IMG/VR virus record: IMGVR_UViG_3300032309_001546
Span: 81,920 to 145,919 of that record
DNA from: a virus
Direction: 5' to 3' (one strand)
Length of the DNA stretch: 64,000 bases
The translations under genes were made by a program, and so were the position numbers. The notes under the pieces are model-generated. The model saw only the letters and a list, made by a program, of their open reading frames with translations. It was not told the DNA's origin and searched no databases. Position 1 is the stretch's first letter; every line of letters starts with the position of its first letter. Shown one piece after another: positions 5,955 to 28,119 of the stretch.

Positions 5955-6159
5955 TAGTAAGTCTCCTAAGTAGATTAGATCATTGTTTAGCCAAGAGATA
6001 AAAAAGAGCACTGTAAGAGGCCGGCGCAGCCGGCCCATAAATAAAGTACATTGAAGACTATATACTAGTAAAGAGAGATAGACAGAGTAATAGGATATAC
6101 AGAAGAGATTAAGGTCTAGACAGTAAGGAGTATACATGTAGCATGACAAGTCATGTCCT

Positions 6160-6510
6160 GCTATACCCTGCGTTATACCTTGCTATACCCTGCAAATACC
6201 CTGCAGATCCCCTTAAAATACCTTGCTATACCTACCCCGCTCCTACAAACTATACCAATATACCTTGTCCTCGCGTAAGCCCGTCTTATACCTCTATATA
6301 CCCCTATATGCCAAAAGCATACAAGGCTATTCTCTGGACTCTTTTTGAACAAGTTCTTATACCCCTATATAGTAAACTTATATACTTGTATGTATACTTG
6401 TATACCCCTATGGGGCAAAAGCTGCCTTCATGAAACTCTGGATATCCATCGTAAAACTCTGGACTCTTTTTGGATCTTAAAAATGACTCTTATCTCTGGA
6501 CTCTTTATGG
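6160..6510. repeat. low-complexity tract: ~12 ATACC/TATACY repeats and 4 CTCTGGA(CTCTTT) repeats
   Basis: Seen directly; strand-skewed and non-coding. Confidence 0.75.
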
Positions 6511-6569
6511 TCTCAGAATCCTGGCCCGGTTGCTTGCATGTATAGCCCTTTATAGCTATATCCTCCTTG

Positions 6570-6599
6570 AAAAGAAAAACCCTGCTGTTAGGCAGGGTT
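6570..6599 (-). terminator. intrinsic terminator
   Basis: AACCCTGC-CTAACA-GCAGGGTT followed by TTTCTTTT on the minus strand. Confidence 0.8.
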
Positions 6600-6612
6600 C
6601 TCTTCCTTGAGA

Positions 6613-7002
6613 TTAGATCTCTTGGGCATGAGAGTGACGAGTCTCTCGATTAGGACTGTTAGCAGCACGGCGGCGCTTGATAGCCTCCAACTTTGCAGCT
6701 AGTTCATTTTCCTCACGTTCAGCATTCAAAGCATCCAACTTACGCTGGTACTCACGCTGAGCACGGGTCGTCTTTACTTCCTCAACAGGCTTACTAGTAG
6801 ATTGAGATGCTGCGGGTCTAATACCCTCAACCTTCTCAGTTACCATATTACTACCCTTCTTGAGGATAGGACCAAACAACCCCATGAAGATAGCAGGGAT
6901 TACTAGAAGAACAGTACCGAAGATACCCCAAAGGGCACCTGCTGCACCTGCTGCTCCTGCTTTGGCAAGAAATGTTCCGCCTTCTGCGCCTACATCAGCC
7001 AT
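6613..7002 (-). CDS. membrane-anchored coiled-coil protein
   Basis: Hydrophobic N-terminal segment then a charged helix; GGAGG RBS. Confidence 0.7.
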   Translation of the reverse strand: MADVGAEGGTFLAKAGAAGAAGALWGIFGTVLLVIPAIFMGLFGPILKKGSNMVTEKVEGIRPAASQSTSKPVEEVKTTRAQREYQRKLDALNAEREENELAAKLEAIKRRRAANSPNRETRHSHAQEI

Positions 7003-7004
7003 GA

Positions 7005-7319
7005 TTAGCCCTCCACTCGATAGAATGCACCTGCATTAGGTGCGTGAATCTGAATAGCGCGATAACCTGGATGAAGCGGCTTACCCGTTGCATCCTTCTT
7101 GTGTCGCTTTAGAAATAGAGGAAGGTTCTTGAAGCCCAAGGTGAATCCCTCGGCACCAATCTCCCCATTGCTCCATACCTCGATATCATCACCACCCATC
7201 TTGCAACGAGTAACGACGAAGCTACCAGCCTCTGTACGAACTCGTGCTACAGTAGGAACTGCAGGGTTAGATGAACCAACTCGAATCACACCACTCGCGG
7301 TCAAAACATCACTCATCAT
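7005..7319 (-). CDS. hypothetical protein
   Basis: Start moved to ATG 7319 (GAGG RBS); the longer track ORF runs through the tRNA. Confidence 0.65.
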   Translation of the reverse strand: MMSDVLTASGVIRVGSSNPAVPTVARVRTEAGSFVVTRCKMGGDDIEVWSNGEIGAEGFTLGFKNLPLFLKRHKKDATGKPLHPGYRAIQIHAPNAGAFYRVEG

Positions 7320-7364
7320 ATACCTCTCATGTTGTACTCTAGAATATAGAGCGTTTGGGGAAAG

Positions 7365-7439
7365 TGTGCCCGACTGGACTTGAACCAGTGACCTACGGCT
7401 TAGAAGGCCGTTGCAACTATCCAACTGTGCTACGGGCAC
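7365..7439 (-). tRNA. tRNA-Arg (anticodon UCU), no encoded CCA
   Basis: GTGCCCG/CGGGCAC acceptor, D arm, ACGGC-CTTCTAA-GCCGT anticodon arm, ACTGG-TTCAAGT-CCAGT T arm. Confidence 0.93.
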
Positions 7440-7467
7440 GCAGCCTAGGTTTTACCCTAGTAGTTGT

Positions 7468-7962
7468 TTAGAAGCCGTCTCCATCCTCGAAGACAAAGTT
7501 GTCAGCAGGATTTCCGGCAGTCTGACGACGACGCACAGTAGTACGAGCCACAGCACGGACTGCAGGAGTTGCCACAGGACCAGCCGCCTTCATCTGCTGA
7601 GGAGCTGGAGTAGAAGCAGGTGCTGCTTCCTTGGTTGGCCGGCGACCATAGTTGATCTCATTCGCGACAACTTCAGTGATGTAGCGGGTCTCACCCTTGC
7701 TCTCATACTGACGAGTCTTGATTCGACCCTCGATCTCGGCCTCACTACCCTTTGACAGGTACTTGGCAGCATTCTCTGCAGCCTTACCCCACACAACAAC
7801 ACGATGCCACTCCGGCTCACTGACCGTCTCTCCCGCCTTATTTACGTACTCGTAATTAGTGCAGATAGACAAAGTAGCCCGGCTACGGCCAGTTTCAGTC
7901 GTAGACAACTTGGGATCATCACCAAGGAAACCACGAAGCTCAACACGATTCTTATTACGCAT
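7468..7962 (-). CDS. ssb: single-stranded DNA-binding protein
   Basis: NRVELRGFLGDDP...EWHRVVVWGKAAENAAKYLSKGS..EIEGRIKTRQY; acidic-aromatic tail (EDGDGF). Confidence 0.95.
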   Translation of the reverse strand: MRNKNRVELRGFLGDDPKLSTTETGRSRATLSICTNYEYVNKAGETVSEPEWHRVVVWGKAAENAAKYLSKGSEAEIEGRIKTRQYESKGETRYITEVVANEINYGRRPTKEAAPASTPAPQQMKAAGPVATPAVRAVARTTVRRRQTAGNPADNFVFEDGDGF

Positions 7963-8049
7963 CTCTCATCTCAACTTACCCATCCACTGATGGTAATGTT
8001 TATTTCAATAAAGCATAATACTCACGATAAAAAGCGAGCGCAGCGAAGC

Positions 8050-10149
8050 TAATGTATGCCAAGTACAAAGATCTGAAACATTGTACTAACAATGCTCAAA
8101 AATGTAATGGCAAAGTATAAAACGAAGATCCCACTGATAATGTCCCACAGTGTAGATTTCTTCATGCTAGGAAAAACACTATCTCTGAAAGCACATTTGT
8201 GAAGAGTACCTTCAGTATCCAAGCTATTCCAATCAACGTAATGATTCTTTGCATTATTACCTCGTAGCTAGAGCCAAGATAGCAATAGCAGGCCAGATCA
8301 GACTAGCCGCAGTATAAGCAAACACAAACCAGACAGGAACCACAACGCTTGCAGTTCCATTGATGTGGCTCATAGTGAAGGATACAGTACTCATAAGAAT
8401 TGACTTCATTAGATCCCCTTTCTGGTTTCGGCGTCTCCGATGTTGACGAACTTTGCTCCCTTGAATTTGCGGTACGAGGCGATGAGAAGGCCTGGGACTC
8501 TCTGTACCCAGATGCCACCTTGTGCTTTGATTCGCTTTGCGATCCGCCTTGCAGCGTATCGATTAGGCGTTTCATGCACGGAAAGACATCCACTAGCAAC
8601 AAGTACACTGTACATTAGATCTCCTGGTTGCGGATGATTTCAATTTCTTGACTGATCCGGATATCCCGGACAGCAAGCATCAAAGTACTGATACGGTCAA
8701 CTCCCCAGACTGCTTCCAGCATTGCAATCAAGTATGCAATGTTCTCTGCATTTCGGTAGTTGATGTCAAAAAGACGGTTATCGACTTTATCCATAGGATC
8801 TACGTTTTCCATGTTCTTCTCCTACTTGATGTCTTCAGCGCGGGCGATTGCCTCTGCTGCGAGAATGATGCATTCAAGGTTCTCGAAGTTCTTTTCAAGA
8901 TACTCGATGCGGTTACGGGCCTTACGAGATCCTTCCTTGATTGCGAAGTCTTCATTCCACAGAGGAGCGGTGTCCTGAAGTAGATTGAATGCACAACGGT
9001 ACTCTTGGAGCTGGGCCTTTCGACTTTCACGGGTATTAGCCGTAAGGTTGATGTAAGTCAGGTGATGAAAAGTATCGGTAATCAGACTCTTTGTCTCGTA
9101 CATTTATTCCTCCGAGGAATTGTTGTTGAACTTGAACTTGCGGCATCCATTCTTAGATTCCTCCTTCCGGGGGTCTCCATGGTTGCCGTTCTTGAAACCA
9201 CCGTAAGCAAGCGTCATTGCGGCGCTATCACGACGAGGGACAAACTTATCTTTCTTTACAGTCTTTGACATTGTAACCTACAGGTATAAGTAGCTAGAAT
9301 CAAAGAACATCACTGCTGCGATGATCCAGAAAGCAACGCCGCCATAAAAACTGGCGACGAGAAGGGTTGTTTCAGCAAGGTTGAAGGTGTGCTCTTCAAA
9401 CCGCTCCTTGTCAATGTTGAATGTAATCTTCATGACCAGTAACTCCAGCGAAGGATGTCAATGAGGACCATGAATGCGCAAGCAGCGAATCCAAGTCCAC
9501 TAAGACAGAAAAAGAACAACGTGCAGAATTGCCAATTGTTCACAGTAACAGCATACTTACCAACTTGAATCTTGTGCATTCTTATTCTCCTTCAGGAAAC
9601 AAACGAAAGAACTTATCCTCTGCCCAGTCTTCAAATGAGAAGTCCAGTTCTCGGTCAAGACCAAGTTCCGCAGCTTCAATCAACAAGTTATCCTCATTCT
9701 TGTCAAACCACTCTTCAAAGTCAATCATGGTGTCCTCCTTAGGACATAAGGGTTTAGAATTGTTCGAATGCCTTCTCAGCGTGAGCAAGCGCAAGGACAA
9801 GGCTATCTCTGTAGCCCTCAAGCTCTGGATGGGTTGGTAGTACACCATTTGCCCGCGTAACCAAACTCTTGAGAGTAGATACCATGCCTTTCAGCGCATC
9901 GTAATCTATTCCACTATGACCAGCATACATCTTCATCATGACTTACTCCTCCAAACCAGAGTGATTGAGGAAGTCCCCGATAACGGCATGGATAGCGCTG
10001 ACCTTGTCACCAGCATATCCGTTCCAGTCATGGACTTCCATGCTATTGTCAGCGCGGACATCAAGGCCAAGGATCATGACATCTCCCTGGTAGATCTTGA
10101 TAAACGCAGATCCAGTCTCTATGTTCTTCAAAAAGTCTACAGTCAGCAT
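8050..10149 (-). CDS. cluster of ~12 short hypothetical genes (incl. 8409-8615, 8615-8812, 8822-9103, 9582-9728, 9754-9939, 9943-10149), several membrane peptides
   Basis: Abutting minus-strand ORFs with GGAG/GAGG RBSs; plus-strand track ORFs here are shadows. Confidence 0.6.
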
Positions 10150-10179
10150 GTTGTCCTCCAAGGACATAAGGGGGAAAGT

Positions 10180-10246
10180 CTTCCTGATAGGATTCGAACC
10201 TATCTGCTAGACCCGCAGAAGGCGGGTTTGCAATACCATAAGGAAG
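10180..10246 (-). ncRNA. tRNA-like mini-element 1
   Basis: CTTCCT/AGGAAG acceptor, TATGGTA D-like loop, long stem, GATAGG-TTCGAAT-CCTATC T arm. Confidence 0.6.
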
Positions 10247-10333
10247 TGATTCAGCCTTTGTGGCTACTGGACATGACACCCAATAGGTTATCCTACCAAC
10301 GGGCAGGTTACAGGCTGTTGACCTATTGGACTA

Positions 10334-10897
10334 CTAGTTCTCTGGGAAGATGTTTCCCAGCAGAAACTCTTGACATTCCAGTCGGGAGCTGGGCTCGTAG
10401 TAAGGAGCGAGTTCAGGATCACGGGCGTTGACCTTGGCTCTCTTGGCCTTGATCTGTTCCCTGAAATCCTGAAGTTCCTTGCTGCCCTTCTCCATGCGCA
10501 TGATAGAGTCTGTCTCGTTAGTGAGGACTTCTCCCCACAACTTCAGACCCTTCTTCAACGTCTCAAGGAACACGGGAGTCATGGATACCAGGTGAGCAAT
10601 CTGGTAGAAGCAATTCTCGTGGACACTGTTCTCCAAAGAGATGCCGACATCTCTCCAGCCAGTGCCATGGTCCCAGTACAGACCCTGGAACTCCAAGTCA
10701 ACTACCTGGATGGTGTTCGGAAAACTGACCTTGAAGGTCGTATCTTCCCACCTCTTGCTCCAGGGGTCCTGTTCCTTAGCGGAGTAGAAGTTCTTCGTGC
10801 TCTTCTGGACAACCTCGATGTTCCAATCATGCTCTTCACAGATACTCTCCAGAGTCTTCTGGATGATAAAGTCAAGGACAATGTCTTTCATGTTCAT
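10334..10897 (-). CDS. hypothetical protein
   Basis: ~185-aa ORF, start approximate. Confidence 0.7.
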   Translation of the reverse strand: MNMKDIVLDFIIQKTLESICEEHDWNIEVVQKSTKNFYSAKEQDPWSKRWEDTTFKVSFPNTIQVVDLEFQGLYWDHGTGWRDVGISLENSVHENCFYQIAHLVSMTPVFLETLKKGLKLWGEVLTNETDSIMRMEKGSKELQDFREQIKAKRAKVNARDPELAPYYEPSSRLECQEFLLGNIFPEN

Positions 10898-11023
10898 TCT
10901 CCAGTAAAGAGGTAACATTACCTCTGAGGTTATAAAAAGTGCTCCAGTTTACAGACATGGAGCAAGGTCACGGGACACCATTATTTGTGCTCCCCTATAC
11001 TAGGCTGTTTCTCACCTAGTAAT

Positions 11024-11094
11024 TCAATCATATGGGAATCGAACCCATAACTAGATATCCATAATGGTATATCTAGCGTCACCAGACTAATCAA
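11024..11094 (-). ncRNA. tRNA-like mini-element 2
   Basis: TATGGG-TTCGATT-CCCATA T arm, CTAGATAT/ATATCTAG long stem, TCTGGTGA D-like loop, G-U-rich acceptor. Confidence 0.5.
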
Positions 11095-11140
11095 AAGGGT
11101 ACGGGTCGTCTTATTTGCTAGCGTGCGAACCCCTTCCCAG

Positions 11141-11350
11141 TCGTTACTAGCGAACTAGTAACCACCCCATGTCTATATAACTACTAGGGCAGGGGTCCCT
11201 AATAATTAGCCCATGTTTACTCTCATTACTCGCGGCAGGGCTCCGCCAGTAATAAACCCTATGTTTATCTCGTTACTAGAAGCAAGGGACTAACTAGTAA
11301 CCACCCCGTGTTCATCTTGTCCATTAGTGGCTGAGGCCCACTAACAGCCA
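11141..11350 (-). repeat. five degenerate hairpin units joined by RTRRACAYRGG linkers
   Basis: GTTACTAG/CTAGTAAC stem occurs twice; linkers TAAACATGGG, TAAACATAGG, TAGACATGGG, TGAACACGGG. Confidence 0.65.
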
Positions 11351-11551: not shown

Positions 11552-11758
11552 TTACACGAAGAAGCGACGAGCCACGTGAACGGCCTCAATGAGAGACTCA
11601 GAACCAGTGCTGGCATCTTCCTCGTATTCCTCGAAATCGACAAACTCTTCAGGACTGTCCGGGCGATGGCTCCAGTCGATGCGGTCAATGACCTCATCTT
11701 CGCTACCGACAGGAATGTTGAAGCAATCCTCAAAAGACACGAACTCAACAGGGACCAT
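11552..11758 (-). CDS. small acidic protein
   Basis: 68 aa, GGAG RBS, very D/E-rich. Confidence 0.65.
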   Translation of the reverse strand: MVPVEFVSFEDCFNIPVGSEDEVIDRIDWSHRPDSPEEFVDFEEYEEDASTGSESLIEAVHVARRFFV

Positions 11759-11844
11759 GACAGACTCCGTTTGTTACGAAGACACACATAATGTCTTCAC
11801 CATGAAAGGCGAGCGCAGCGAGCCTAATACTGTGTAGCGGAGTA

Positions 11845-11881
11845 AAAATAAAACCCCAACACATCCTACTGTGCTGGGGTT
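11845..11881 (-). terminator. intrinsic terminator closing the ~400-nt non-coding unit
   Basis: AACCCCAGCACA...TGTGTTGGGGTT followed by TTATTTTT. Confidence 0.75.
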
Positions 11882-12272
11882 CTATCTCTCTATCTCGCAT
11901 TAGGACACTAGCAGGGTCACTACTAGTTACGAGTCTATCAGCCCAAGAGGAGGCTTATCCAAATCGTAATGCGGAATTGGCAACCGCACCTGTCTACTTA
12001 CACTAGAACCCGACAGGCCCTTTCTAGTGCTTTGATACCCGACAACTACTGGTGTGGTATCTACTGGAGTCTTGAGCCCAGTCTACTCTCCTCCTGGGTA
12101 CGCCTAACTAGGCTCACCATGCTCCCCCGAGGTTGGGAACATGGGTACGGGGCGCGTAACTGCCCCTTCCCAGTTTTTATGTTAAGCGGACTGGGAACCG
12201 CCCCTGTCTGATACATACCAGAAGCCGACAGGCCTCATCTGGTACGAGTAGCGGTAGCTACTATCCGCCATG
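11882..12272 (-). ncRNA. candidate structured ncRNA with two related H-type pseudoknots
   Basis: No minus-strand ORF; consecutive hairpins; repeated loop GGCCTGTCGG with downstream AGACAGG. Confidence 0.55.
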
Positions 12273-12401
12273 TGAGGCGAGCGCAGCGAGCCTAATAGAA
12301 TCCTATTACCTGGACTCTGTCTGGCCATACTAGTAATGCAACTATTTTTGGCCGACCCTAGTAAAGGGGTTTCCCCCCGAGTAGGGGGGTTTCGTGGGGG
12401 T

Positions 12402-12445: not shown

Positions 12446-12925
12446 CTAGTCCCAGTCGCCAGCAACAGGGGCGGACTTGCGGGCGGCAGGCTTGGCGGCG
12501 GGCTTGGCAGGCCTCGCGGGAGCCTTGGCAGCGGGCTTGGCGGGTGCCTTGGCGGGCTCCTCGACAACACCGTGACGACGCATAAGCGCCTTCTCGGTGG
12601 CCAAGAGACGAATCTGGGCCTTGCTGTACACGATGAGCCTGGTGGCGTTGTGCCAGGCCTTGTCATCGCTCTGCCAGGACTCCGTCTCGAGGCCTGCCCC
12701 GTCGATGTGCACGAAATTGTACCCGCTCTCGTCCGCCTTTGCGACGAACCAGTTCACGAGCTCCTGGCCGACCAGACGCACCCGCGTCCAGTTGGTGTCC
12801 TCCGTCCCGTAGGACGAACTGACCGAGAAGTCCGCGTACTTTCCGCTGGCCCCGATCACGGGCTGCTTGCCCATGTAGCCGAAGCCCGAGACCTTGAGGG
12901 TGAGAAACTTGCGATTCTGTTCCAT
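12446..12925 (-). CDS. divergent SSB-like OB-fold protein
   Basis: TNWTRVRLVG and LETESWQ match the SSB pattern; AKPA linker; acidic-aromatic tail GDWD; GGAG RBS. Confidence 0.65.
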   Translation of the reverse strand: MEQNRKFLTLKVSGFGYMGKQPVIGASGKYADFSVSSSYGTEDTNWTRVRLVGQELVNWFVAKADESGYNFVHIDGAGLETESWQSDDKAWHNATRLIVYSKAQIRLLATEKALMRRHGVVEEPAKAPAKPAAKAPARPAKPAAKPAARKSAPVAGDWD

Positions 12926-12969
12926 TGACGTTCTCCGTGGTAAGTGAGCCAAAGGCGGCTCATCATGAA

Positions 12970-13140
12970 AGGCGAGCGCAGCGATGCCTGTGCTGCGGCG
13001 TTGTTGCTGTTGCCTGCGTAGCGCAGCGGAGCAGGCTGTGTTGCTACCTGCGGAGCGCAGCGAAGCAGGGTAACCACGTAGCGCAGCGGAGTGGTGTGTC
13101 CTGTGGTTCTGATGAGCGTAGCGCAGCGGAGTGAATCAGA
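12970..13140 (+). repeat. cluster of five GC-GCA-GC triloop hairpins with GA/GNA internal mismatches
   Basis: 12970-12989, 13013-13035, 13047-13069, 13073-13095, 13108-13140; single copies at 6019, 8033, 11807, 12275. Confidence 0.85.
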
Positions 13141-13211
13141 GGCGAGGACTCGGCGCAGCCCAGCGGAGTATCTGGACTTTTTTACGACTATTTGTACTAT
13201 TTTTGTATTAT

Positions 13212-13238
13212 AGAAAGAATAGCCCATTGCTGGGCTAC
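13212..13238 (-). terminator. intrinsic terminator of the giant ORF
   Basis: TAGCCCA-GCAA-TGGGCTA then TTCTTTC. Confidence 0.8.
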
Positions 13239-13250
13239 TCAATCTAATGG

Positions 13251-20048: not shown

Positions 20049-20292
20049 GAGTTACCTCCTAGTCAACGGGGTCCAGCGCGATCTATAGGGAAGCATTCCC
20101 TATGACCGACATACCAGTGTCTTGTAACACACTGGAAGATTTCTGGTCCTTTATGGGAAGGACCCTGTTTAAAACCCTGGCTTTCTGTTCGCTCCGGCAT
20201 TGACCCATACTACCTTCTTGGAAGATACTGGGGTGCCATTCGAACTATCCGGCCCATTGCGACCACCCCTTAGCAGAGAGCTGGTCCACATT

Positions 20293-20323
20293 TTAGCCCA
20301 TAGTAGTGCAACTATTTAAGTAT
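20293..20323 (-). promoter_or_regulatory. class-A repeated motif (TACTTAAATAGT-N0-11-ATGRGYTAA) upstream of the polymerase gene
   Basis: Same motif precedes every unit from 20.3 to 27.1 kb. Confidence 0.7.
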
Positions 20324-20339
20324 CGTACAAAAAATACCC

Positions 20340-21893
20340 TTCCTGGGAAGTTCATTAAAACACTTACACACCCAGTGTGCAGTTTGCTCAACGCATAAAT
20401 TACTAGTCTGATACTTGTTAACAGACCAGCGATCTATACGCCGTGAACCCATCCAGGGACGCCAGGAGCCTTGCCTCCGTCCTGGGATTAGCTTCGCACA
20501 TTAGCATGACATAAAGCGTTTTATCCCTTAAAGGATTCTTGCGCTGCAGTCTTCTTCTCCCACTACATTACTAGACTAGAGGTTCAATGGGCCTCTATGC
20601 TAGGGATCTTGCCGCCGAATTGCGCGAGAAGATATAACCATCCTACTCCTTTTGAGAGCAAGAGCATCTAGTAATTACCTGACCTATGTGTAGTTATCTA
20701 TGGGCAAACAGATCCTAACAAGAACTGAACCTCTGGCAGCGGTTTCTTGTTAGTTTAGGCGTACAAGCGCCTATCCCCTCTTATACGTGCATGCCTGGCA
20801 GTCATCACATACTAATTGGGGGCTGATCTTTTGCTTGCATAGTGATTTGGGTTCTTCTTACCAGTAAGAGCGGCGCTACTCGCTAAAACCAGTATATAGG
20901 GTGTTTATAACCCAATCCAAATGCAAACGGCTCCTCGGTATTTCAACCGAATCACAGCCTTCTACAAGTGTCAAGTGTGGGAGTCAAAGACACAGCATCC
21001 TTCTTGGGACGCTTTGTGTCATACTTCTGTTACGAAGCTAAAGCAACGAATCTCACCATCTCACAGACCAGGTCCTGTCTACACAGTAATCAACTGTATA
21101 GCGGTTATCTGATCTGTCCTCGTTGATTCCTCGTTATCTCTGCAGAAGGGCTACCGCTTAAAGTAGAAATCCTCCTGGATAACTTGGTCCACCGGCCACA
21201 CCTGCTAGAGTGCGCCTACTCTGTCTCACGACAGTTGGGGAATTATGCAGCATTTACTCTGTAAAAACAGGGAAAGGGTTCAGCACTTGCCGCCTTGCTT
21301 AAGGGCGGGAGTTTGCCTATCACGAGATCTGCTTGTGTCGGTTTTGCGGGGTGTTTTTGTTGAGGTTCCCCTTTTGCCTCCTTTTTTAAAGTCCGTACTC
21401 TCTTTCGAGGACAACAGACTTAGTGCGCGTAATCAACGCTTGGGAAAGTTAAAACCCATATAGTCATCTTTGGTGAGGGATGACGCCCTACTGCCGACAG
21501 GCAGACCCCTAAAATCTCTATTAGCCATACTTGACATCCACACCACCGACATATTAGGAGCTTTCGCCCCCGGAAGAACTGTTCCTCCTTGGTGTTTCAG
21601 TCTGTGTTGCAGGCCGTACGAGATCTTAGGTTGACAGTTTTTCTGCTACCGACTTTTAGGGATTGCTCCCTCCGCCGGATTTATGCAGGAACACAGTTTT
21701 GGCTGTTAGCCTAGCTGCTTATACTGTCCTCGTGTCCTCTCCGACCATCCACCTTTGGGCATGGCCAGATACTGCACAAGTCAACGAACCGGTAAGATTC
21801 GTTGCTTATTTTTTATGGGGCGTTAACTACGTGCAAAACCTTGCCAACGCTGATCCCCACATATGGTCACTCCATATGTTTAAGACTCCACTG
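20340..21893 (-). ncRNA. candidate giant (~1.55 kb) structured ncRNA
   Basis: No minus-strand ORF of 60 aa or more; two class-A motifs upstream; dense hairpins with GNRA loops on the minus strand. Confidence 0.6.
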
Positions 21894-22080
21894 TTTAGCC
21901 CATAGTATTCTTTTGACGACTATTTTTGGACTATTTGAGTAAAGTAAAACAATTTAACCCATAACTATACAACTCTTTGAGTATTAGAGAAAAAATAGCC
22001 CTTAACGCGGGCTAGACGTGCTTTTCTGTTCCCAAGAAGCAACTCTCGGATGGGCACCACCCCATCAGGCACCTCCCGTT

Positions 22081-22368
22081 TCAGGGAGACGGGCACTCCC
22101 CATCTTTGAGGTGACGCTTGCTGCGCACACAGCCGTATTCGGCCATGCGAGCCTCCACCTTGCGAAGGTGAAGAGTGTCACCCCAAACCGAGATGTAGGG
22201 TTTATTAGCCAAAGCTCCGAGAAGCCGGCCAATTCCCCACATCACGTCGGAAGCCTCGTCCTTGAGTTCTTCAAGGTTTTTAACCTCGAAAAGCTCTACT
22301 GCCTCTTCGGCAATATGGACGATAGCAACCCGGATGGGAAGCACCTCAAGACATTTACAGAAATGCAT
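22081..22368 (-). CDS. possible MazG-like all-alpha NTP pyrophosphohydrolase
   Basis: EEAVEL...EELKDEASDV resembles EExxE...ExxD; AGGAG RBS. Confidence 0.5.
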   Translation of the reverse strand: MHFCKCLEVLPIRVAIVHIAEEAVELFEVKNLEELKDEASDVMWGIGRLLGALANKPYISVWGDTLHLRKVEARMAEYGCVRSKRHLKDGECPSP

Positions 22369-22526
22369 CTGTAGACTCCTTGTGGTAATGCTGTATGCAG
22401 TACAGCGCTGTGAGTAAAAGGATCTTTACTTCACTGTTTAGCCCAGACTAGTGTACTATTTAAGTATGTTTCAAAGAATGACCCATCTTGCGATGGGTCA
22501 CTCAGTGATGTCTCTCTTCCCTTTCT

Positions 22527-22889
22527 CTACTTCCGCCAGGCCCCAGTACGAGCCTCGACCACAGTCTTGAGGTTGCAGTAGAGGTTGCCCACCGCATAGC
22601 GGCAGGGGGTAGCGGTGGTCAGCCAGTCCTCGTTGGACTGAAGGTCGGGACCCTTGGCCATGGCCAGAGAGTAGCGAGCTTCCTCTGACAACTGGCATTT
22701 GGCCAGAGTCTTGCGGTGCACCGAGACCTTGACGGTGTCGATCTCGCCGCTGAAAGAAGCCGCCACGTGGTTCCAGCCGATGGCCTTGAGGGCCTCGACG
22801 ATCTCCGTCTTGTAGACCGAGACGGGAAGGGTGGGGGGGAAGGAGATAAGGAGCGCGCTATCCGTCACATCATTGATCTTCTTGCACAT
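22527..22889 (-). CDS. cassette hypothetical protein
   Basis: GGAGG RBS before ATG 22889. Confidence 0.75.
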   Translation of the reverse strand: MCKKINDVTDSALLISFPPTLPVSVYKTEIVEALKAIGWNHVAASFSGEIDTVKVSVHRKTLAKCQLSEEARYSLAMAKGPDLQSNEDWLTTATPCRYAVGNLYCNLKTVVEARTGAWRK

Positions 22890-23034
22890 GGTTTCCTCCA
22901 TTGGAAAGGCGGTGTGGCGCACCGTGGCAGGGGGTAGAATCTGCCATCTTCTAGTTCATAGTAGGACTATTTAAGTACTATAGATTACTTACCCCACCTT
23001 GCAGTGGGGCTTTCATCTACCTCAACCTCAGCTC

Positions 23035-23181
23035 TTAGTCCTGCATGCAGCTCCACGAGATGCCGATCCAGGACAGGATCAGAAGACCCGCGCAGACCGG
23101 CTCCATCACGCCAGAGCCAAAGCTCCAGCCGAGGGTGCAGGTTGCGAGGAGGAAGCTGGCGGTAGCGATTGCATTCTTCAT
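23035..23181 (-). CDS. cassette small two-TM peptide
   Basis: 48 aa, hydrophobic, GGAG RBS, fills a cassette slot. Confidence 0.65.
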   Translation of the reverse strand: MKNAIATASFLLATCTLGWSFGSGVMEPVCAGLLILSWIGISWSCMQD

Positions 23182-23325
23182 GACATTCTCCAGTTTGGCA
23201 TCATTCTTTACGAAGTGTAAAGCTATGTATGCCCACAGCCTAGCCCATACTACTATTTGTGTATCCTAGAAAAGATAGCCCACCTCCTCAGGGTGAGCCA
23301 TCCTATCTATCCTCAATCGCTCTAG

Positions 23326-23505
23326 TTACTCGCTGCGGTCAGCAAGCCAACCACCACGACGCACCGACTGGCGGCACGCGAGGCAGTCACAGCCCCAAAG
23401 GGCGTCGGCGATGTCGCTTTCCCAGGCAAACTCCTCTTCCTCCGTGAGGAGGACGATGAGCTCGATCTGAAACAGGGCGAGGATCTTGACAAGAATCTTG
23501 TCCAT
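23326..23505 (-). CDS. cassette small protein (CxCxxC)
   Basis: AAGGAG RBS before ATG 23505. Confidence 0.7.
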   Translation of the reverse strand: MDKILVKILALFQIELIVLLTEEEEFAWESDIADALWGCDCLACRQSVRRGGWLADRSE

Positions 23506-23630
23506 GGCTAACTCCTTTACGAGTGGGGACGACATTATCCCAAAGCTGGCCAAAGATTAACTCATAGCAGTACAACTATTTATGTATTGTCGATTACTTA
23601 CCCCTTACGGGGCTTTCGTCGGGTTGCTCT

Positions 23631-23891
23631 CTACTTGTCGCCGCATACCGGGAGTGGCGTGCCGTTAGGCACGTCACTCATCGGGTGTGGGTGAGTCGCA
23701 GAGAAGTCTACAATCCACCACCGCCAACGGGTTTCCCCGCTAAGGCTGCAGTCGATCTCAACAAGCTCGTCCTCAACGCAGTACCCAGCAACCTTCGGCT
23801 CGATCGTACCGGTGGTCGGCACGGGGAGCGTGTTGTTGCTGGAGCAAGCGGTGAGGAGCGAGGCAAGCAACGCGATCTTCAACTTATCCAT
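23631..23891 (-). CDS. cassette lipoprotein
   Basis: MDKLKIALLASLLTA-C lipobox; AAGGAG RBS. Confidence 0.75.
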   Translation of the reverse strand: MDKLKIALLASLLTACSSNNTLPVPTTGTIEPKVAGYCVEDELVEIDCSLSGETRWRWWIVDFSATHPHPMSDVPNGTPLPVCGDK

Positions 23892-24015
23892 GAGATCTCC
23901 TTTCGGTTTGGGTGACATTACCCATCTCACCGTTTAGCCCATAGGACTGTTTAAGTATTGTTCAAAGAATAGCCCGCCTAAGCGAGCCACTCGATGATGC
24001 AGTCTACCTCATCCT

Positions 24016-24216
24016 CTAGTCATCGAATCCATACTGCCAAAACAGCGAGGACACGATGGCCATGCCGATCAGCACGATCGTTGCGAACGTGCCGAGAGCG
24101 TTGAACAGGTTCTCGGGGCCGGCGACCCGAAGCCAGTTGTCCATGAGGCAACCAGCGAAGAACATATTCAAGAGGTGAACGAAGACGCGGACAATGTTCC
24201 AGAGAACCTTAACCAT
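24016..24216 (-). CDS. cassette two-TM membrane protein
   Basis: AAGGAG RBS; two hydrophobic helices. Confidence 0.7.
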   Translation of the reverse strand: MVKVLWNIVRVFVHLLNMFFAGCLMDNWLRVAGPENLFNALGTFATIVLIGMAIVSSLFWQYGFDD

Positions 24217-24357
24217 GACAGACTCCTTTCTAGTAATATTCCCCAACGAAATGCGGGGCTATATCACCACACTTTAACCCACACTACTTGAACTATTTAA
24301 GTACAGTAGAAAAGATAGCCCACCTTGCGGTGAGCCAGAGCTTCCCTGATTGTGGAC

Positions 24358-24648
24358 CTAAGGCTTGTTAGCCAAGTGGTCCGTGATGGCCTTGCTGTTG
24401 CCCTGCGAAGGGCAGCACCCAAACTCGCGGAACCAGTAGTCCCGCTTGTTATGCCACTTCTTCTTGGCGGCCTTCTTCCGAGCCTCGCTTGCCTTTTTAC
24501 GGGCAGCACGGACAGAGGCGCGAATCTTGCGAGCCTGCTGACGAGTTTCCTCGTCAACAAGCCCGCAGAACAGGATCATGAAACCCGTTCCTGCACCCCC
24601 GAGAAGAATGACGGCGAAAATCAATCGCAACCACATCATCGAGTCCAT
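24358..24648 (-). CDS. cassette membrane-anchored basic protein
   Basis: AGGAGG RBS; TM helix then K/R/A-rich helix. Confidence 0.75.
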   Translation of the reverse strand: MDSMMWLRLIFAVILLGGAGTGFMILFCGLVDEETRQQARKIRASVRAARKKASEARKKAAKKKWHNKRDYWFREFGCCPSQGNSKAITDHLANKP

Positions 24649-24806
24649 AACAAACCTCCTTTACGTTAGGTTAGCGCTCTGCGAATCTGCAGTTTACGCC
24701 ATGTCATGTCACCTTCTAAGTCATACTATTTAAGTATCTTAGAAAAAATGACCCGTCCAAAGACGGGCCATGTTCCCTTGCCCACCCTAAGGTGAGCCGT
24801 TGCTCT

Positions 24807-25049
24807 TTACCTGAACGGAACGTACAGGTAGAGAGCGCGACGATTGAACCCAGTCGCCTTGTGGATGCTCGCGAAGAGCCGGTATTCCGGGGGCGAGCTG
24901 GTCATGGCGCTGTAAACGCCACGTGCGACCTGGTAGCCGCATCTGCTCCCGCGGTTCTCGAAGGCAGTCCAGGCCGCAGCCTGAGACAGCCAGTCGAGAA
25001 GACGATCCTCCTCTGTCTTGGGGGTCGTCTCGTTGGTGTTGTTGCTCAT
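24807..25049 (-). CDS. cassette hypothetical protein
   Basis: AGGAGG RBS before ATG 25049. Confidence 0.7.
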   Translation of the reverse strand: MSNNTNETTPKTEEDRLLDWLSQAAAWTAFENRGSRCGYQVARGVYSAMTSSPPEYRLFASIHKATGFNRRALYLYVPFR

Positions 25050-25204
25050 TTTATCCTCCTTGAAGGTTGCAGTGTGGCGCACTGGGCAGGGGGTAGAATC
25101 TGCCATATATTAACTCATAGCAGAACTCTGTAAGTATTAGAGAAGAAATACCCCACCCTAGCATAAGCCAAAGTGGGGCAATCCTCTAGTCCATCAACCA
25201 GTTA

Positions 25205-25432
25205 TTACCAGTTGAAATCCTGCTCAACATGATGGAGCACCTCAGTGCCAAACACGCTGAACCGAATCAACAGTCGAAGGCGCACAGGGGTGCCACCCTC
25301 GATGCCGTGGTGCTGCAGCCCAAAGGCCACAAGATTCTTCCACCCACGGCCGGGGTGGGGAGTGGTGTCAATGACAACACCGTTCACCATGGTCTCAACC
25401 TCAAGCAACTGCATCTCGGTCGTGATCATCAT
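25205..25432 (-). CDS. cassette hypothetical protein
   Basis: GGAGG RBS before ATG 25432. Confidence 0.7.
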   Translation of the reverse strand: MMITTEMQLLEVETMVNGVVIDTTPHPGRGWKNLVAFGLQHHGIEGGTPVRLRLLIRFSVFGTEVLHHVEQDFNW

Positions 25433-25632
25433 CTTATCCTCCATTGAAAAGGAAGGGAATTTCACCCCACCCGAGAACACTCTCAGGATTTGAAGTTCAT
25501 AGAAAATTTGAACCTCCACACTTTAGCTCATACTATTTAAGTATATAAGAAAAGATGGCCCATCCTCTCGGACAGGCCACCTAAGCTAATACAAGCTGAC
25601 TCAAGGGCTCAAAGGATCAAGCTCTCAATCAA

Positions 25633-25833
25633 TCAATGCCAGGGATTACGCCCAGCAGGATTGAAGAAGCCGCGACGGGCGCACTCACGCTTGATCTCCT
25701 CGCGCCTCTCTTCCATATCCCGGCAGTAGCTGTTGCCCCAGCCGTACTGGCTGTGGAAACGGACATCATCCGCGAGAAGGTTGACGGAAATGAGGGAATT
25801 GCAGTTCCGAATCTCAATCTTCAACTTATCCAT
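25633..25833 (-). CDS. cassette hypothetical protein
   Basis: GGAGG RBS before ATG 25833. Confidence 0.7.
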   Translation of the reverse strand: MDKLKIEIRNCNSLISVNLLADDVRFHSQYGWGNSYCRDMEERREEIKRECARRGFFNPAGRNPWH

Positions 25834-25973
25834 GGCAAACCTCCAGGTTGAAATCACTCCTATGAAATATAGGTAGTGTGCCAAATGTTAACTCATAGTA
25901 GTACTCTGTTAGTATGTTAGAAAAGATAGCCCCCGAAGGGGCCAGAGCTTGACCAGAGCGTGAGCTCTAGTTA

Positions 25974-26237
25974 CTACTTGTACATCGCCTTAATGAAGGC
26001 GTTCTCGATGGCGCGAACCAGCTGCCAGCTCGCGTTCATCTCCTTGTCCAGGTCCCAGGAGGAACCGTCCTTGGCCTCGATGTCCTTGAGGCGGGAGATC
26101 TCGACCTTGATCGTGCTAAGCGTGTTCCGAAGCTCCTCATGGGAACCCTCTTTGATACCGTTGTTGTCAACAGAATCATTGAAGGTTGCCCAGCAGGTCT
26201 CCGCAATCTCGCTCATCTGGATCATGCTCTTGTTCAT
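25974..26237 (-). CDS. cassette hypothetical helical protein
   Basis: GGAGG RBS before ATG 26237. Confidence 0.7.
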   Translation of the reverse strand: MNKSMIQMSEIAETCWATFNDSVDNNGIKEGSHEELRNTLSTIKVEISRLKDIEAKDGSSWDLDKEMNASWQLVRAIENAFIKAMYK

Positions 26238-26394
26238 CTTATCCTCCGTTGGTTGGAAGGGAATTTCACCCTGCCCGAGACAATTCCCAGGACTTGAAGC
26301 TAGTAAGATTACCAACTCCCACATGTTAACCCATAATACTATTTGAGTATCTTAGAAAAGATAGCTCGCCATTACAGCGAGCCAGAGCTAATCT

Positions 26395-26751
26395 CTAACG
26401 CCAGTTGTGAACAATGCTGAACCAGGGTTGAACCAGGTCAGCCGGAAGCTCCTTGTGGAGCTTATCCGTGATTTCCCTCCACTCCAGCATGTGCTGGTAG
26501 CGGATAGAGGACGGGATCTCACGGTTGTAGCCGTGGAACCCCTCAAACCAAGCGACGAACACCTGGATATCCTCTGCAGTAGCCTTGCGAGCCTGATCCC
26601 TAATCTCCTCAAGGGAGACCTGGGCAGCAGACTTGACGGCAGGAGCAACGTTGACAGTCTTGACGCTCTCCTTCCCGAAGGGGAAGAAAAGAGTAACAAG
26701 GCCGACGACGAAGCAAAGAGCCATCAAAGCGACAAGAATAACGTTCAACAT
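26395..26751 (-). CDS. cassette membrane-anchored protein
   Basis: AGGAGG RBS; N-terminal TM helix. Confidence 0.75.
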   Translation of the reverse strand: MLNVILVALMALCFVVGLVTLFFPFGKESVKTVNVAPAVKSAAQVSLEEIRDQARKATAEDIQVFVAWFEGFHGYNREIPSSIRYQHMLEWREITDKLHKELPADLVQPWFSIVHNWR

Positions 26752-26870
26752 GGCAAACCTCCTGGTTGAAATCGTTCCTATGAATTATAGGTAACGTGCC
26801 ACAAGTTAAGTCATACTATTTGTGTATGTAAGAAAGAATGACCCACCTTGCGATGGGTCACTCAATCAGG

Positions 26871-27062
26871 CTACAGAGAGAAGTATCTCTGTGACCACAC
26901 GACGGACAGGCTGTTCCACGTACCCCAGGTCAGGGTGCTATGGCGGGTGTGCTTGTCCATGCTGCGGTCGATGACATCAAGCTCCTTGCGGGAGACTGCC
27001 GAAGCAATCTCTTGAAGGAACTTCTTTGCCAGGTACTCATTAGACGCGACATTGATTCTCAT
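26871..27062 (-). CDS. cassette hypothetical protein
   Basis: GGAG RBS. Confidence 0.7.
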   Translation of the reverse strand: MRINVASNEYLAKKFLQEIASAVSRKELDVIDRSMDKHTRHSTLTWGTWNSLSVVWSQRYFSL

Positions 27063-27165
27063 TGTCTATCTCCATGAAGGGTGAAATTACCCACATACTA
27101 TCCCATACTATTTAAGTATAGGAGAAAAAATGACCCATCTCTCGATAGGTCATTGATCCTAGTAC

Positions 27166-27654
27166 CTACTTGATGTAGGTATTGATTGACATCAGGCTGC
27201 GCATAGCCTGGTGTTGATACTCCGTTTTGGCAACCCACTCAAAGGTCGCCTCAATGGAGCGTTCGAGCCGATTAAGCGGCCCGCTGAGGAACTGAATCTC
27301 ACCCTGCGACATAGGCGGGGTAAGGTCCGACTCAACAAACTTAGCAAAGACATCCCACTGGTTGTTAAGCCAGAGAGTGAAAGATGCGTGAGCCTGTTGA
27401 GCCCGGACCAAGCGTTCCATTGCTTGATCCGTCGTGATGTTCTGAGCACAGGCGTTGATGCCAGTCCTCCAGACGCAAGTCTTGAGGCCCACCGCCTGGA
27501 TCTCAAGAACATCACGCTCCACTGCAGCGACCTGCTCGTGGAAGTACCGAGAGATCATCCCGGCGGTGGGTGCCTCATTGGTTGAATAGGTATAAATACC
27601 CTCAACCGATGAAGCGTTGACGAGGAGAGCGGACACGATAACGTTGTTCGACAT
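27166..27654 (-). CDS. cassette hypothetical protein (first gene of the minus-strand block)
   Basis: GGAG RBS before ATG 27654. Confidence 0.7.
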   Translation of the reverse strand: MSNNVIVSALLVNASSVEGIYTYSTNEAPTAGMISRYFHEQVAAVERDVLEIQAVGLKTCVWRTGINACAQNITTDQAMERLVRAQQAHASFTLWLNNQWDVFAKFVESDLTPPMSQGEIQFLSGPLNRLERSIEATFEWVAKTEYQHQAMRSLMSINTYIK

Positions 27655-27779
27655 GATTGACTCCAAGACAAAGGGCGGAATTGCCCACACACTAGCCCAT
27701 AACGGTACAGGCGGTCGATCCAAAGGGGGTGGGCTAAAACGAATAGGGGGTACACATCTTTACCAGGCGGGCTATATAG

Positions 27780-28110
27780 AGTACCCACTCTTTTCCGAAA
27801 AAAAATATATTAATTATATATATCCAGATATATAGCCTGTCTTTAGATTGCTCTTTTCCAAAAAAAATATATATAAATATATAAGCCTATATAGAGTTCT
27901 TTAGGCAAGTCTACGTCCCCTTTTCAGACCTATACCCCCTTTTCCCCTAGCTTTCCCACTAAGTGTTTTCTCAAAATATATATAGAGGTTTTCCCCTATA
28001 CTATATATAGGACTTTTCCTTATACATATAAGGTCTTTCCTTAAATAATATTTAAGGTTTTTTCCTTTTCCCTATATAGCGTCCCTTATGGTATCAAGTT
28101 AATAAAGTTT
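27780..28110. repeat. AT-rich low-complexity strand-switch region with CTTTTCCRAAAAAAAATATAT direct repeats and many TTTCC/TATATAG units
   Basis: Seen directly; lies between divergent gene blocks. Confidence 0.75.
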
Positions 28111-28119
28111 AAACTTAGT

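Follow-up and report, generated by a model that had tools for sequence, protein, structure and literature searches.

A 64,000-nucleotide (nt) stretch of phage DNA, hereafter called the window, was analysed for the content and likely role of a block of genes and signals at 6.15 to 28.1 kb. The window comprises bases 81,920 to 145,919 of a 145,919-bp linear IMG/VR virus contig with a CheckV completeness of ∼84%; positions are those of the window unless the genome is named. The contig derives from a myovirus with a genomic GC content of 38%; the closest counterparts of its large terminase, in Moorella phage MTATph1 and Bacillus phage 0305phi8-36, are only 28 to 30% identical. The block contains a giant open reading frame (ORF) for a protein with a predicted RNA polymerase (RNAP) core, an array of small genes behind a repeated signal referred to as class A, one certain and one probable gene for a single-stranded DNA-binding protein (SSB), DNA mini-hairpins, a tRNA gene, and a structured 1.56-kb unit without long ORFs (Table 1).

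Between 6.6 and 27.7 kb, the minus strand holds every credible ORF, tRNA-Arg(TCT), and all motif copies. The GC content is 44 to 64% at 6.15 to 28.1 kb, with a maximum at 12 to 20 kb, compared to 32 to 40% in the flanks, and the block is the single such GC island across the contig. GC at third codon positions (GC3) is 0.65 to 0.82 in module genes versus 0.23 to 0.36 outside (terminase, portal, SNase protein, and left-flank genes), so the difference between block and flanks resides in synonymous sites. A first-pass annotation made from the sequence alone had described a block oriented along one strand, with GC above the flanks (peak, 12.4 to 20 kb) and repeat tracts at both ends, and had read it as a self-contained early-type module with a polymerase, SSBs, RNAs, and two motif classes. 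That description was borne out in each of these respects; the two motif classes part cleanly at 13.2 kb, and the module proved to be conserved. The same junctions, flanking genes, and GC step are present in contigs from other samples (L009, L010/L011, L012/L013, and L014), and the architecture recurs in independent assemblies (L009-L014, L017, L023/24, and L026). Synteny is the same in the distant lineage L017 (161.6-kb contig; polymerase, 32% identical), in which GC3 is 0.59 to 0.63 in the module and 0.24 to 0.27 in the flanks. When the block was compared to phage records with megablast, the tRNA was the sole nucleotide match, and a related-locus search of IMG/VR returned nothing.

The giant ORF encodes a protein in which four transmembrane (TM)-like segments (residues 1 to 30, 37 to 55, 90 to 112, and 350 to 380) and an Ala/Lys/Pro-rich linker (residues 130 to 330) are followed by a Cys cluster, the polymerase core, a helical region, an acidic linker (residues 1640 to 1760), a DUF4326 domain, zinc-ribbon-like Cys pairs, and a YpsA/SLOG domain. 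In Pfam and PHROGs, the whole ORF matched DUF4326 and YpsA/SLOG, with nothing on the core, N-terminal, or helical parts. An exhaustive HMMER search recovered 19 distant homologues (21 to 35% identity; 760 to 3,499 amino acids [aa]), some of them fused to HIRAN or PIF1 helicase. Invariant across the 20 sequences are D628-G629, K659-G660, R890-x-P892, G942-x-D944-x-D946-D947, and S1104/D1108-A1109. For two-barrel RNAPs, PMC2919709 lists eight invariant residues, namely, one Asp in barrel B, a pair of Lys, Arg-x-Pro, and the three Asp of DxDGD, and the order of the invariant residues in the core agrees with this set. The third metal-loop Asp is at +3 (DxDD) versus +4 in DxDGD, and the second Lys of the eight-residue set was not identified. 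Motif spacing is close to that of YonO (D628, K659, R890, and D944 versus D250, K271, R492, and D535 in YonO).

An alignment-based AlphaFold2 (AF2) model of the core, with a predicted local distance difference test score (pLDDT) of 86.7 and a predicted template modeling score of 0.85, was used in place of a single-sequence model, which was discarded (pLDDT, 36.6). The model has two double-psi barrels in one chain together with the polymerase core fold. The best Foldseek matches were QDE-1, the Thermus phage enzymes P32 gp64/P74 gp62, crAss phi14:2 gp66, and plant RDR2 (E values, 7e-6 to 8e-4). VIA-align gave Z scores of 10.3 to 13.6 over 383 to 464 residues versus ∼6 for multisubunit RNAPs; the non-virion enzymes gp64 and gp62 scored 10.3 to 10.6 and the virion enzyme gp96 scored 7.9. 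These comparisons support a predicted fold of the QDE-1/YonO/P23-45-gp64 type, that is, a single-chain two-barrel RNAP, and membership in the catalytic two-barrel family is likely. Thus, the polymerase that had been expected in the module was confirmed at the level of fold.

Searches at the level of sequence were less productive. The core had no match by tblastn to 50,697 phage records or in a sequence search of the PDB, and an hhalign comparison of the family profile to YonO was not significant (E value, 0.37), with the DG...KG stretch aligned. A profile search of the contig for a second two-barrel paralogue found the giant ORF alone, in a family of enzymes that can be too divergent for profile detection. 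Among ORFs of at least 200 aa, no other DxDGD, DFDxD, or GxDxDD was found except a primase-like zinc motif, and a PF00940 search detected no T7-like RNAP in the contig, though the control likewise matched nothing. The lineage L027 has a polymerase-PIF1 fusion, followed by a separate YpsA+DUF4326 protein (12813-13637) and an SSB (13963-14400). Because the domains that are fused or adjacent in the window are neighbours there, this arrangement suggests that YpsA, DUF4326, SSB, and polymerase form a conserved functional unit.

Repeat finding revealed class A as a family of 16 copies. In a minus-strand alignment, the copies have, at fixed mutual spacing, a GC-rich hairpin, T-rich tail, and ATACTTAAATAGT box, followed after a gap of 0 to 25 nt by the 17-mer TATGRGYTAAnnnGTGG and then by a leader of ∼50 nt, GGAGG, and ATG. 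The 16 copies of TATGRGYTAA..GTGG run from 27701 to 20302 on the minus strand, with one just before the giant ORF, and no convincing copy of the 17-mer was found elsewhere in the 146 kb. With one mismatch or fewer, ATACTYAAATAGT matched the genome 14 times, always on the minus strand and always within 20.3 to 27.1 kb; a control pattern had no match. The first cassette (27701) has the promoter half alone, with no terminator preceding it, and the copy at 13208, after the giant ORF, has the hairpin and box alone. Because the spacing of ATACTTAAATAGT is fixed to the terminator and variable to the promoter, and because these two copies separate the halves, ATACTTAAATAGT is best regarded as a terminator box and the 17-mer as the promoter candidate. 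The class-A motif had been placed at 20 to 27 kb, including a copy before the polymerase gene, in the first-pass annotation; its location stands, but its ATACTTAAATAGT half belongs to the predicted terminator rather than to the promoter.

Terminator-like sites were enriched (21 versus 7.3 ± 2.6). Sigma-70-like sites were not (6 versus 8.8 ± 3.0), the sole one on the minus strand (28232-28205) is outside the array, and the class-A signal has no −35/−10 geometry. The cassettes carry 13 small ORFan proteins (63 to 162 aa), one ORF-free unit, and the giant ORF. None of the 13 proteins matched Pfam or PHROGs, and allowing TAG, TGA, or TAA to be read through, as in alternative genetic codes, yielded no long ORFs at 20 to 28 kb. 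Promoter-plus-leader segments of 70 to 73 nt are 79 to 86% identical in the pairs 22926-22998/25085-25157 and 25831-25900/26749-26818, which precede different ORFs, and small genes are shuffled between relatives. The cassettes therefore appear to be exchanged as modules.

In order to establish which signal travels with the polymerase, six further family members (L016, L017, L023/24, L025, L026, and L027), with polymerases 28 to 35% identical to that of the window, were compared. All six lineages carry the class-A composite, in the order hairpin, T-rich tail, TACTTAAAnAG, and TATGGGYTAAnnnnTGG. The composite forms arrays of short cassettes in these lineages wherever enough sequence exists and precedes the polymerase gene; in L017 and L023/24, it is also found beyond that gene. 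The other motif class of the module, the GCTGCGC hairpins described below, was not found ahead of genes in any of the six. The polymerase thus travels with class A and not with the hairpins, and the co-occurrence of signal and gene in all seven lineages despite the low protein identity indicates that class A is the putative promoter of this polymerase family. The first-pass annotation had proposed a cascade, in which class-A units make the polymerase that then serves the hairpin units, and had suggested examining co-occurrence in related genomes. Co-occurrence was found for class A (6/6 further lineages) and not for the hairpins. The cascade is not supported by these lineages, in which class A is kept and gene-preceding hairpins were not found, and its direction is probably reversed.

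Class A is absent from 13.2 to 6.6 kb, where the units, including the two SSB genes, follow hairpins. These had been assigned to 6 to 13 kb; they do precede units, and their range is 8 to 13.2 kb. The hairpins have the form stem-GNA-GCGCAGC-GNA-stem on the plus strand, the template for the module genes, so that template-strand hairpins with a 3-nt GNA loop lie upstream of transcription units as in coliphage N4. Single hairpins are 50 to 76 nt upstream of ORFs, among them both SSB genes, have a conserved TTTCATGG ∼11 nt past the loop, and are kept in close relatives. Those at 11800-12297 are followed by an ORF-poor unit and by an acidic ORF of 68 aa (11552-11758). In the array of five, which is kept in L009, L010, L012, and L014, the stems surround GC-GNA-GC-GCA-GC-GNA-GC, a series of overlapping GCGNAGC words. 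GCGNAGC is an ultra-stable DNA mini-hairpin known from N4 virion-polymerase promoters (as GCGGAGC) and from single-stranded DNA (ssDNA) priming sites (PMC13037366, PMC4496689). The case for the hairpins rests on this known motif and on the covariation of the outer stems, which vary between copies yet stay complementary.

SSBs had been anticipated, of which one is certain and another probable. The gene at 7468-7962 matches SSB families with high significance, and 12446-12952 probably encodes a second SSB. The latter protein had no match in Pfam, PHROGs, or NCBIfam; its nearest Atlas clusters are viral, and one is 60% PF00436. Three identical perfect hairpins, GGCCG-GCGCAGC-CGGCC, are located left of the module at 6024, −2741, and −26498 (plus strand). 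They lie in an AT-rich region in the orientation of the module hairpins, each with a T-rich run after it and ∼70 to 100 nt before the next gene, and could be terminators, promoters, or both.

The ORF-free class-A unit of 1.56 kb has no minus-strand ORF of 60 aa or longer. Among six variants it is 91 to 97% identical, compared to 77 to 90% for the adjacent polymerase gene, and the longest ATG-initiated ORFs (33 to 64 aa) are not conserved. Most indels (22/26) are of a single nucleotide, and substitutions are even across codon positions (60/63/60); like the lack of conserved ORFs, these patterns speak against coding. RNAalifold predicted 525 pairs, 23 of which had compensatory double changes, versus 1 to 5 when the partners were slid by 1 to 3 columns; entire helices are substituted between variants with pairing retained. 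On the evidence of these sequence comparisons, the unit appears to be a structured non-coding RNA that is conserved above the polymerase gene, and we infer that it is expressed and functional. With the tRNA, it accounts for the RNAs that had been expected in the module. Comparison to Rfam 15, which includes GOLLD, ROOL, OLE, group I/II introns, and rRNA, gave nothing at gathering scores, and the best permissive match (E value, 0.66) was an unrelated long non-coding RNA. GOLLD has about half the length of this unit. No homologue of the 1.56-kb body was found with nhmmer in seven distant loci; two anchor words of the RNA had no match in IMG/VR and identified one metagenome contig, L022. In L026, a 1.4-kb ORF-free class-A unit occupies a similar position.

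With slightly better than even confidence, these results are explained by an early transcription module that is read leftward from the divergent control region at 27.7 to 28.1 kb and in which the polymerase reads class A. From 27.7 to 13.2 kb, 16 cassettes each begin with a 17-nt signal that is not of the sigma-70 kind and end in an intrinsic-type hairpin with ATACTTAAATAGT, and the family polymerase would read TATGRGYTAAnnnGTGG as its cognate promoter. Because the polymerase gene itself sits behind a class-A promoter, virion delivery or host priming would be required: either the first polymerase molecules arrive with the virion, or slight host transcription primes the circuit. The N-terminal TM segments and the giant multidomain build resemble those of the virion-delivered polymerases N4 gp50, crAss gp66, and P23-45 gp96. 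The mini-hairpins would be a second, SSB-assisted type of promoter that functions on single strands or would be priming or origin signals. Both crAss gp66 and QDE-1 prefer ssDNA, and QDE-1 needs RPA and a helicase (bioRxiv 2020.03.07.982082); such a preference among QDE-1-type enzymes fits a promoter role and a priming role of the hairpins alike. Later genes are probably read by the host RNAP with a phage sigma factor, since the phage encodes a sigma-70-family protein outside the window (L019; genome 33379-33588, minus strand; Sigma70_r2, 6.1e-21).

Several points weigh against this explanation. The metal loop is DxDD, not DxDGD, and RNA synthesis is a predicted activity. A polymerase gene among early-looking cassettes is atypical for virion polymerases, which are usually late genes. 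Co-occurrence was ascertained from the gene side only, and the reverse IMG/VR search with the composite pattern gave two single chance matches in short fragments and no arrays. If all of these phages infect hosts of a single clade, the signal could be read by an unusual host sigma factor, and a second polymerase could be missing from a contig of this completeness. Folding energies of the hairpins, calculated with nearest-neighbour DNA parameters and compared to shuffled sequences, were unremarkable (z, −0.7 to +1.4). That the module is early, the 17-mer a promoter, and the polymerase virion-delivered is what we infer from sequence features. A host-takeover role may be suggested by analogy; none of the ∼20 small module proteins matches Pfam or PHROGs.

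Two other assignments of the signals were weighed. In the P23-45-like form of the cascade, the host RNAP or an unrecognised virion polymerase would read class A, yielding the two-barrel polymerase along with the giant RNA; the two-barrel enzyme would then read the hairpins as promoters of the units at 13.2 to 6.6 kb and perhaps of operons further left. The clean parting of the two signal classes at the end of the polymerase gene would be expected from such a cascade, P23-45 provides a precedent in its AT-rich pre-early motif and its GC-rich motif for the non-virion polymerase, and the core fits the non-virion enzymes gp64/gp62 better than virion gp96. The distance of the hairpins from ORF starts and their conserved TTTCATGG are also compatible with promoters, perfect-stem versions precede genes left of the module, GCGGAGC is the N4 promoter mini-hairpin, and N4 requires SSB. 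However, gene-preceding hairpins were not found in the six other polymerase lineages, class-A promoters run on past the polymerase gene in L017 and L023/24, and the three perfect-stem hairpins with their T-rich runs could be terminators. No second polymerase, no other DxDGD-type motif in large ORFs, and no T7-like RNAP were found, class A lacks −35/−10 geometry, and sigma-70-like sites are not enriched. The cascade seems unlikely, though it has to be taken seriously. Still more doubtful is the proposal that the GCGNAGC array and singles are replication signals, that is, an origin or sites of single-strand initiation or priming, with the adjoining SSBs as replication genes. GCGNAGC has been described from the G4/ST-1/alpha3 origins and from ssiA priming sites, five tandem copies at 13021-13153 look more like an origin than like promoters, SSB genes follow two of the sites, and members of the polymerase family are fused to PIF1 helicase and HIRAN. 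Against a replication role, every copy is oriented with the template strand of the genes; the fixed downstream TTTCATGG of the singles and their constant distance to the ORF start are promoter-like; and the module has no primase or replication initiator.

The origin of the block itself also allows other explanations. Repeat-rich spacers form both edges. In the left one, 10 of the 31 TATACC copies in the genome are found within 240 bp (6162-6401) in one orientation, together with tandem arrays of 10- to 12-nt units and three copies of AGAGTCCAGAG; the right one has 23- to 24-nt repeats at 27977-28040 and 3 of the 9 genome copies of CTATATAG. The right spacer is a divergent control region, at which the cumulative GC skew turns. 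The block might be a long direct terminal repeat in the style of SPO1 or T5 that was collapsed to one copy in assembly, with the spacers as its edges. The same types of repeat tract bracket the module of the relative L012, the 22-kb contig of which is the block plus short flanks, and contigs of several relatives break within the block. The terminal repeats of SPO1 and T5 carry early-type arrays of small genes with many promoters and terminators, and Bacillus phage 0305phi8-36, which like MTATph1 is among the nearest by terminase, has a fixed terminal repeat of several kilobases in its packaged DNA. However, the block lies internally between unique flanks here, in two contigs of relatives (54.8 kb and 50.5 kb), and in L017, a position that is also expected from a collapsed repeat. 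There is no second copy of the block and no end repeat in the contig, and 21.5 kb, 15% of the genome, is above known examples in size. Sigma-70-type early promoters, as expected of SPO1/T5-like modules, were not in excess (6 sites versus 8.8 ± 3.0 expected). A terminal repeat is considered improbable. A foreign origin of the block, as a recent mobile island or as an assembly chimera of a high-GC element and an AT-rich phage, would account for GC jumps of 10 to 25 points and for the contrast between the GC3 of the giant ORF (0.70) and that of virion genes (0.23 to 0.36), and mobile elements typically carry PcfJ-like and polyvalent-protein domains. The comparative evidence led to its rejection: the same junctions and flanks, with the 440-aa and SNase genes on one side and the PcfJ-like gene on the other, are present in at least 5 independent assemblies, a layout that argues against a chimera; the island is kept at 77 to 91% nucleotide identity and also in L017; and no integrase or direct-repeat borders were seen. 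It is considered highly improbable.

The preferred explanation, an early module read by its own polymerase, has a more far-reaching form that we consider a long shot. In this self-starting system, a membrane-anchored, virion-delivered polymerase with a non-canonical GxDxDD loop would read both the duplex 17-nt promoter and SSB-stabilised hairpins, with the 1.56-kb RNA as a dedicated partner. If so, the hairpins would be the first hairpin promoters known for the two-barrel superfamily, and the RNA, which is conserved above every other element of the module, would serve the polymerase as a scaffold, decoy, or template. A template role is conceivable because QDE-1-type enzymes can copy RNA.

The high GC3 of the module may be related to the timing of translation. 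ARAGORN found seven tRNAs in the genome, all of which read A- or T-ending codons; four (Thr-TGT, Pro-TGG, Lys-TTT, and Arg-TCT) pair with A-ending codons. GC-ending codons would allow the first genes to be translated on the tRNA pool of the host before phage tRNAs accumulate, as the phage tRNA supply probably builds up later, and the GC-rich early genes would be matched to a more GC-rich host. The split between GC3-rich early genes and AT-rich later genes, which is found in the clade and in L017, offers a natural experiment on translation timing. A secreted Cys-rich protein is encoded outside the window (L021; genome 25746-26306, minus strand), with a tail of the form GC-S...TM...RRR. Its best match, which was not relied on, is to MYXO-CTERM-anchored families (E value, 0.0016, far below the cut-off). 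This match is a weak hint of a myxobacterial host or of a high-GC host in general.

The module contains further RNA elements. The tRNA-like element at 10985-11105, which ARAGORN did not call as a tRNA, is kept with compensatory changes in three lineages with polymerases 30 to 35% identical (the window, L017:22165-22285, and L024:6828-6948). A tRNA-mimic RNA and an attachment-site-like sequence are two possible interpretations. In each unit of the 44- to 49-nt tandem repeats, a stem is accompanied by a C-rich loop with which an ACAU-GGG(G) located downstream could pair, and one stretch of the repeats is 96% identical in L009. The repeats look like pseudoknot units resembling a type III antitoxin array, without a toxin gene nearby.

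On the other side of the right spacer, four large plus-strand ORFs (28120-39251; 440, 1,273 [SNase domain], 921, and 1,062 aa) are located directly upstream of the terminase. They have almost no family matches and are candidate ejected or virion proteins. The pair of 440-aa and SNase genes adjoins the module even in the distant lineage L017. A match of the 440-aa ORF (28120-29442) to the PF21769 domain vRNAP_dom, at 19.8 bits, was under the cut-off and was discarded, as 7 control genomes matched too.

Table 1. Positions of features in the window (ORFan, protein without family match; assignments marked as predicted, putative, or candidate are made from sequence or model)
Feature	Position	Strand	Remarks
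Array of 16 class-A cassettes	20286..27701	-	Putative promoter TATGRGYTAAnnnGTGG; each ends in GC hairpin, T-rich tail, box ATACTTAAATAGT
Putative promoter starts, upper part	27701, 27107, 26815, 26335, 25897, 25532, 25119, 24725	-	
Putative promoter starts, lower part	24283, 23943, 23566, 23249, 22960, 22447, 21904, 20302	-	
Small ORFan genes among cargo, part 1	27166-27654, 26395-26751, 25974-26324, 25205-25519	-	
Small ORFan genes among cargo, part 2	24807-25106, 24358-24648, 23631-23930, 22081-22368	-	
Structured non-coding RNA unit (predicted), ∼1.56 kb	20330..21887	-	Two tandem class-A promoters (21990-21885); terminator ∼20350-20325
Conserved 5' leader of giant ORF, ∼240 nt	20049..20285	-	Downstream of class-A promoter 20302
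2,265-aa multidomain protein	13251..20048	-	Close homologues P0001-P0007, 73-96% identity
RNA polymerase core (predicted), double-psi beta-barrel	16299..18371	-	Residues 560-1250
DUF4326 domain	14520..14735	-	Residues 1772-1843; Pfam 5.9e-24
YpsA/YoqJ-type SLOG domain	13353..13832	-	Residues 2073-2232; Pfam 8.6e-17; NCBIfam PRK13660 3.9e-12
Terminator hairpin with box ATACAAAAATAGT (putative)	13196..13245	-	After giant ORF; without promoter half
Tandem array of five hairpins (13021-13153)	13008..13175	+	Variable complementary outer stems; GCGTAGC, GCGCAGC, GCGGAGC words
Single hairpins	8038, 11813, 12281, 12976	+	Read GGC-GA-GCGCAGC-GA-GCC or close variants
Single hairpin	12963-12992	+	Extent of hairpin 12976; just upstream of second SSB candidate
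Two single hairpins (11800-11829 and 12268-12297)	11800..12297	+	Extents of hairpins 11813 and 12281; each reads GGC-GA-GCGCAGC-GA-GCC; sense strand then TTTCATGG or TCACATGG
Single hairpin	8025..8054	+	Extent of hairpin 8038; 76 nt upstream of SSB gene; counterpart L012:18726, before its SSB
Second, divergent SSB candidate	12446..12952	-	Ala/Lys/Pro-rich tail; BLASTP to SSB E 0.011, OB-fold register
SSB	7468..7962	-	Pfam SSB (PF00436) 1.8e-27; TIGR00621 1.5e-27; phrog_44 8.4e-37
Three to four 44- to 49-nt tandem repeats	11143..11347	-	Tandem Repeats Finder period 47; sequence reading
tRNA-like element, ∼110 nt	10985..11105	-	Hairpin, T-arm-like ATGGGTTCGATTCCCAT, second hairpin
tRNA-Arg(TCT)	7364..7439	-	ARAGORN; Rfam 62.6 bits
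Last module gene, 129 aa	6570..7002	-	Hydrophobic N-terminal part; terminator hairpin ∼6600-6570
Left spacer	6150..6510		Minus strand: GGTATA(G) iterons (10 copies), CGCAGGGTAT-type repeats, three AAAGAGTCCAGAG copies
Right spacer, AT-rich	27760..28120		Between minus-strand module and plus-strand virion genes; TATATA/GGAAAAG-type repeats
Large terminase	39202-41421	+	
Portal	44206-45750	+	
Major head protein	51851-53137	+	
Sheath	56984-59419	+	

To our knowledge, phage-encoded two-barrel polymerases are few and their promoters almost unknown. The closest known system is the pre-early/early arrangement of Thermus phage P23-45, which has gp96 as virion RNAP and gp64 as non-virion RNAP (Chaban et al. 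2024, PMC10770324). In its pre-early region, which includes a polymerase gene, an AT-rich promoter and a 26-nt terminator motif are both conserved (PMC10770324). The window shares with it the single-chain two-barrel type of polymerase, a compact block of short genes to which a conserved AT-rich promoter and a terminator are confined along with the polymerase gene, and a second, GC-rich motif class further along. In contrast to P23-45, no tape-measure-fused or other second polymerase was found, and the polymerase is part of a 2,265-aa protein with TM segments, DUF4326, and SLOG and has the metal loop GxDxDD. The GC-rich motif is a DNA mini-hairpin here, the GC3 island and the 1.56-kb non-coding RNA are additional, and there is no detectable sequence similarity.

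The best structural matches are QDE-1, RDR2, and SPbeta YonO (Z scores of 11 to 13.6 over 400 to 460 residues), which agree with the core in how the DG, KG, RxP, and Asp-loop motifs are ordered and spaced and in being linked functionally to SSBs and helicases; a YpsA-like protein, YoqJ, is also present in SPbeta. They differ in having DYDGD or DNDGD where the core has DxDD, in the lack of a sequence-level match, and in their setting, which is RNA silencing or a prophage late operon rather than a phage early module. The gp66 protein of crAss phage phi14:2 (PDB 6VR4) is likewise a giant multidomain protein (2,180 aa) with a QDE-1-like two-barrel core (Foldseek E value, 3e-4) and is early-acting, but a common promoter motif was not found for it and its gene is in the virion block, whereas here there is a 17-nt motif and the gene is in the putative early block. 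Phage phi14:2 also produces long non-coding RNAs early and in abundance, the function of which is not known (bioRxiv 2020.03.07.982082).

Coliphage N4 (gp50; promoters P1-P3; PMC4496689) resembles the module in its template-strand hairpins with a 3-nt GNA loop and the word GCGGAGC, in a giant polymerase-bearing protein, and in the involvement of SSB, which is that of Escherichia coli in N4 and is represented by SSB genes in the module. However, the N4 enzyme is T7-like, a type that was not found here, and its three hairpins are at the genome end, whereas the four singles and five arrayed hairpins of the window follow the polymerase gene and are absent from the other lineages with this polymerase. 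The SPO1 host-takeover module and the T5 pre-early region are comparable as dense arrays of small ORFans with individual promoters and terminators in the genome region presumed to be active first; theirs are read by host RNAP of the sigma-70 type and lack a polymerase gene, whereas this block carries one. The 1.56-kb unit is similar to GOLLD, ROOL, and OLE (PMC12286853), which are also long, highly structured, phage-associated, and conserved above neighbouring genes, but it has no Rfam match and was seen in one narrow clade of six variants.

Relative to these systems, what is new is a polymerase clade with a GxDxDD loop, the embedding of this polymerase in a giant TM-bearing protein with DUF4326 and SLOG domains, a stable GC3 island, a mini-hairpin array, and the 1.56-kb RNA. 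The polymerase family has about 20 diverse members without a Pfam or PHROG model and with an altered metal-binding loop, and a sharply defined candidate promoter and terminator accompany it even among deeply diverged members, which makes it feasible to test enzyme and signal jointly in vitro. Ultra-stable mini-hairpins stand beside SSB genes and a QDE-1-like enzyme, of a class that prefers single-stranded templates, and a structured RNA of 1.56 kb outranks the surrounding proteins in conservation.

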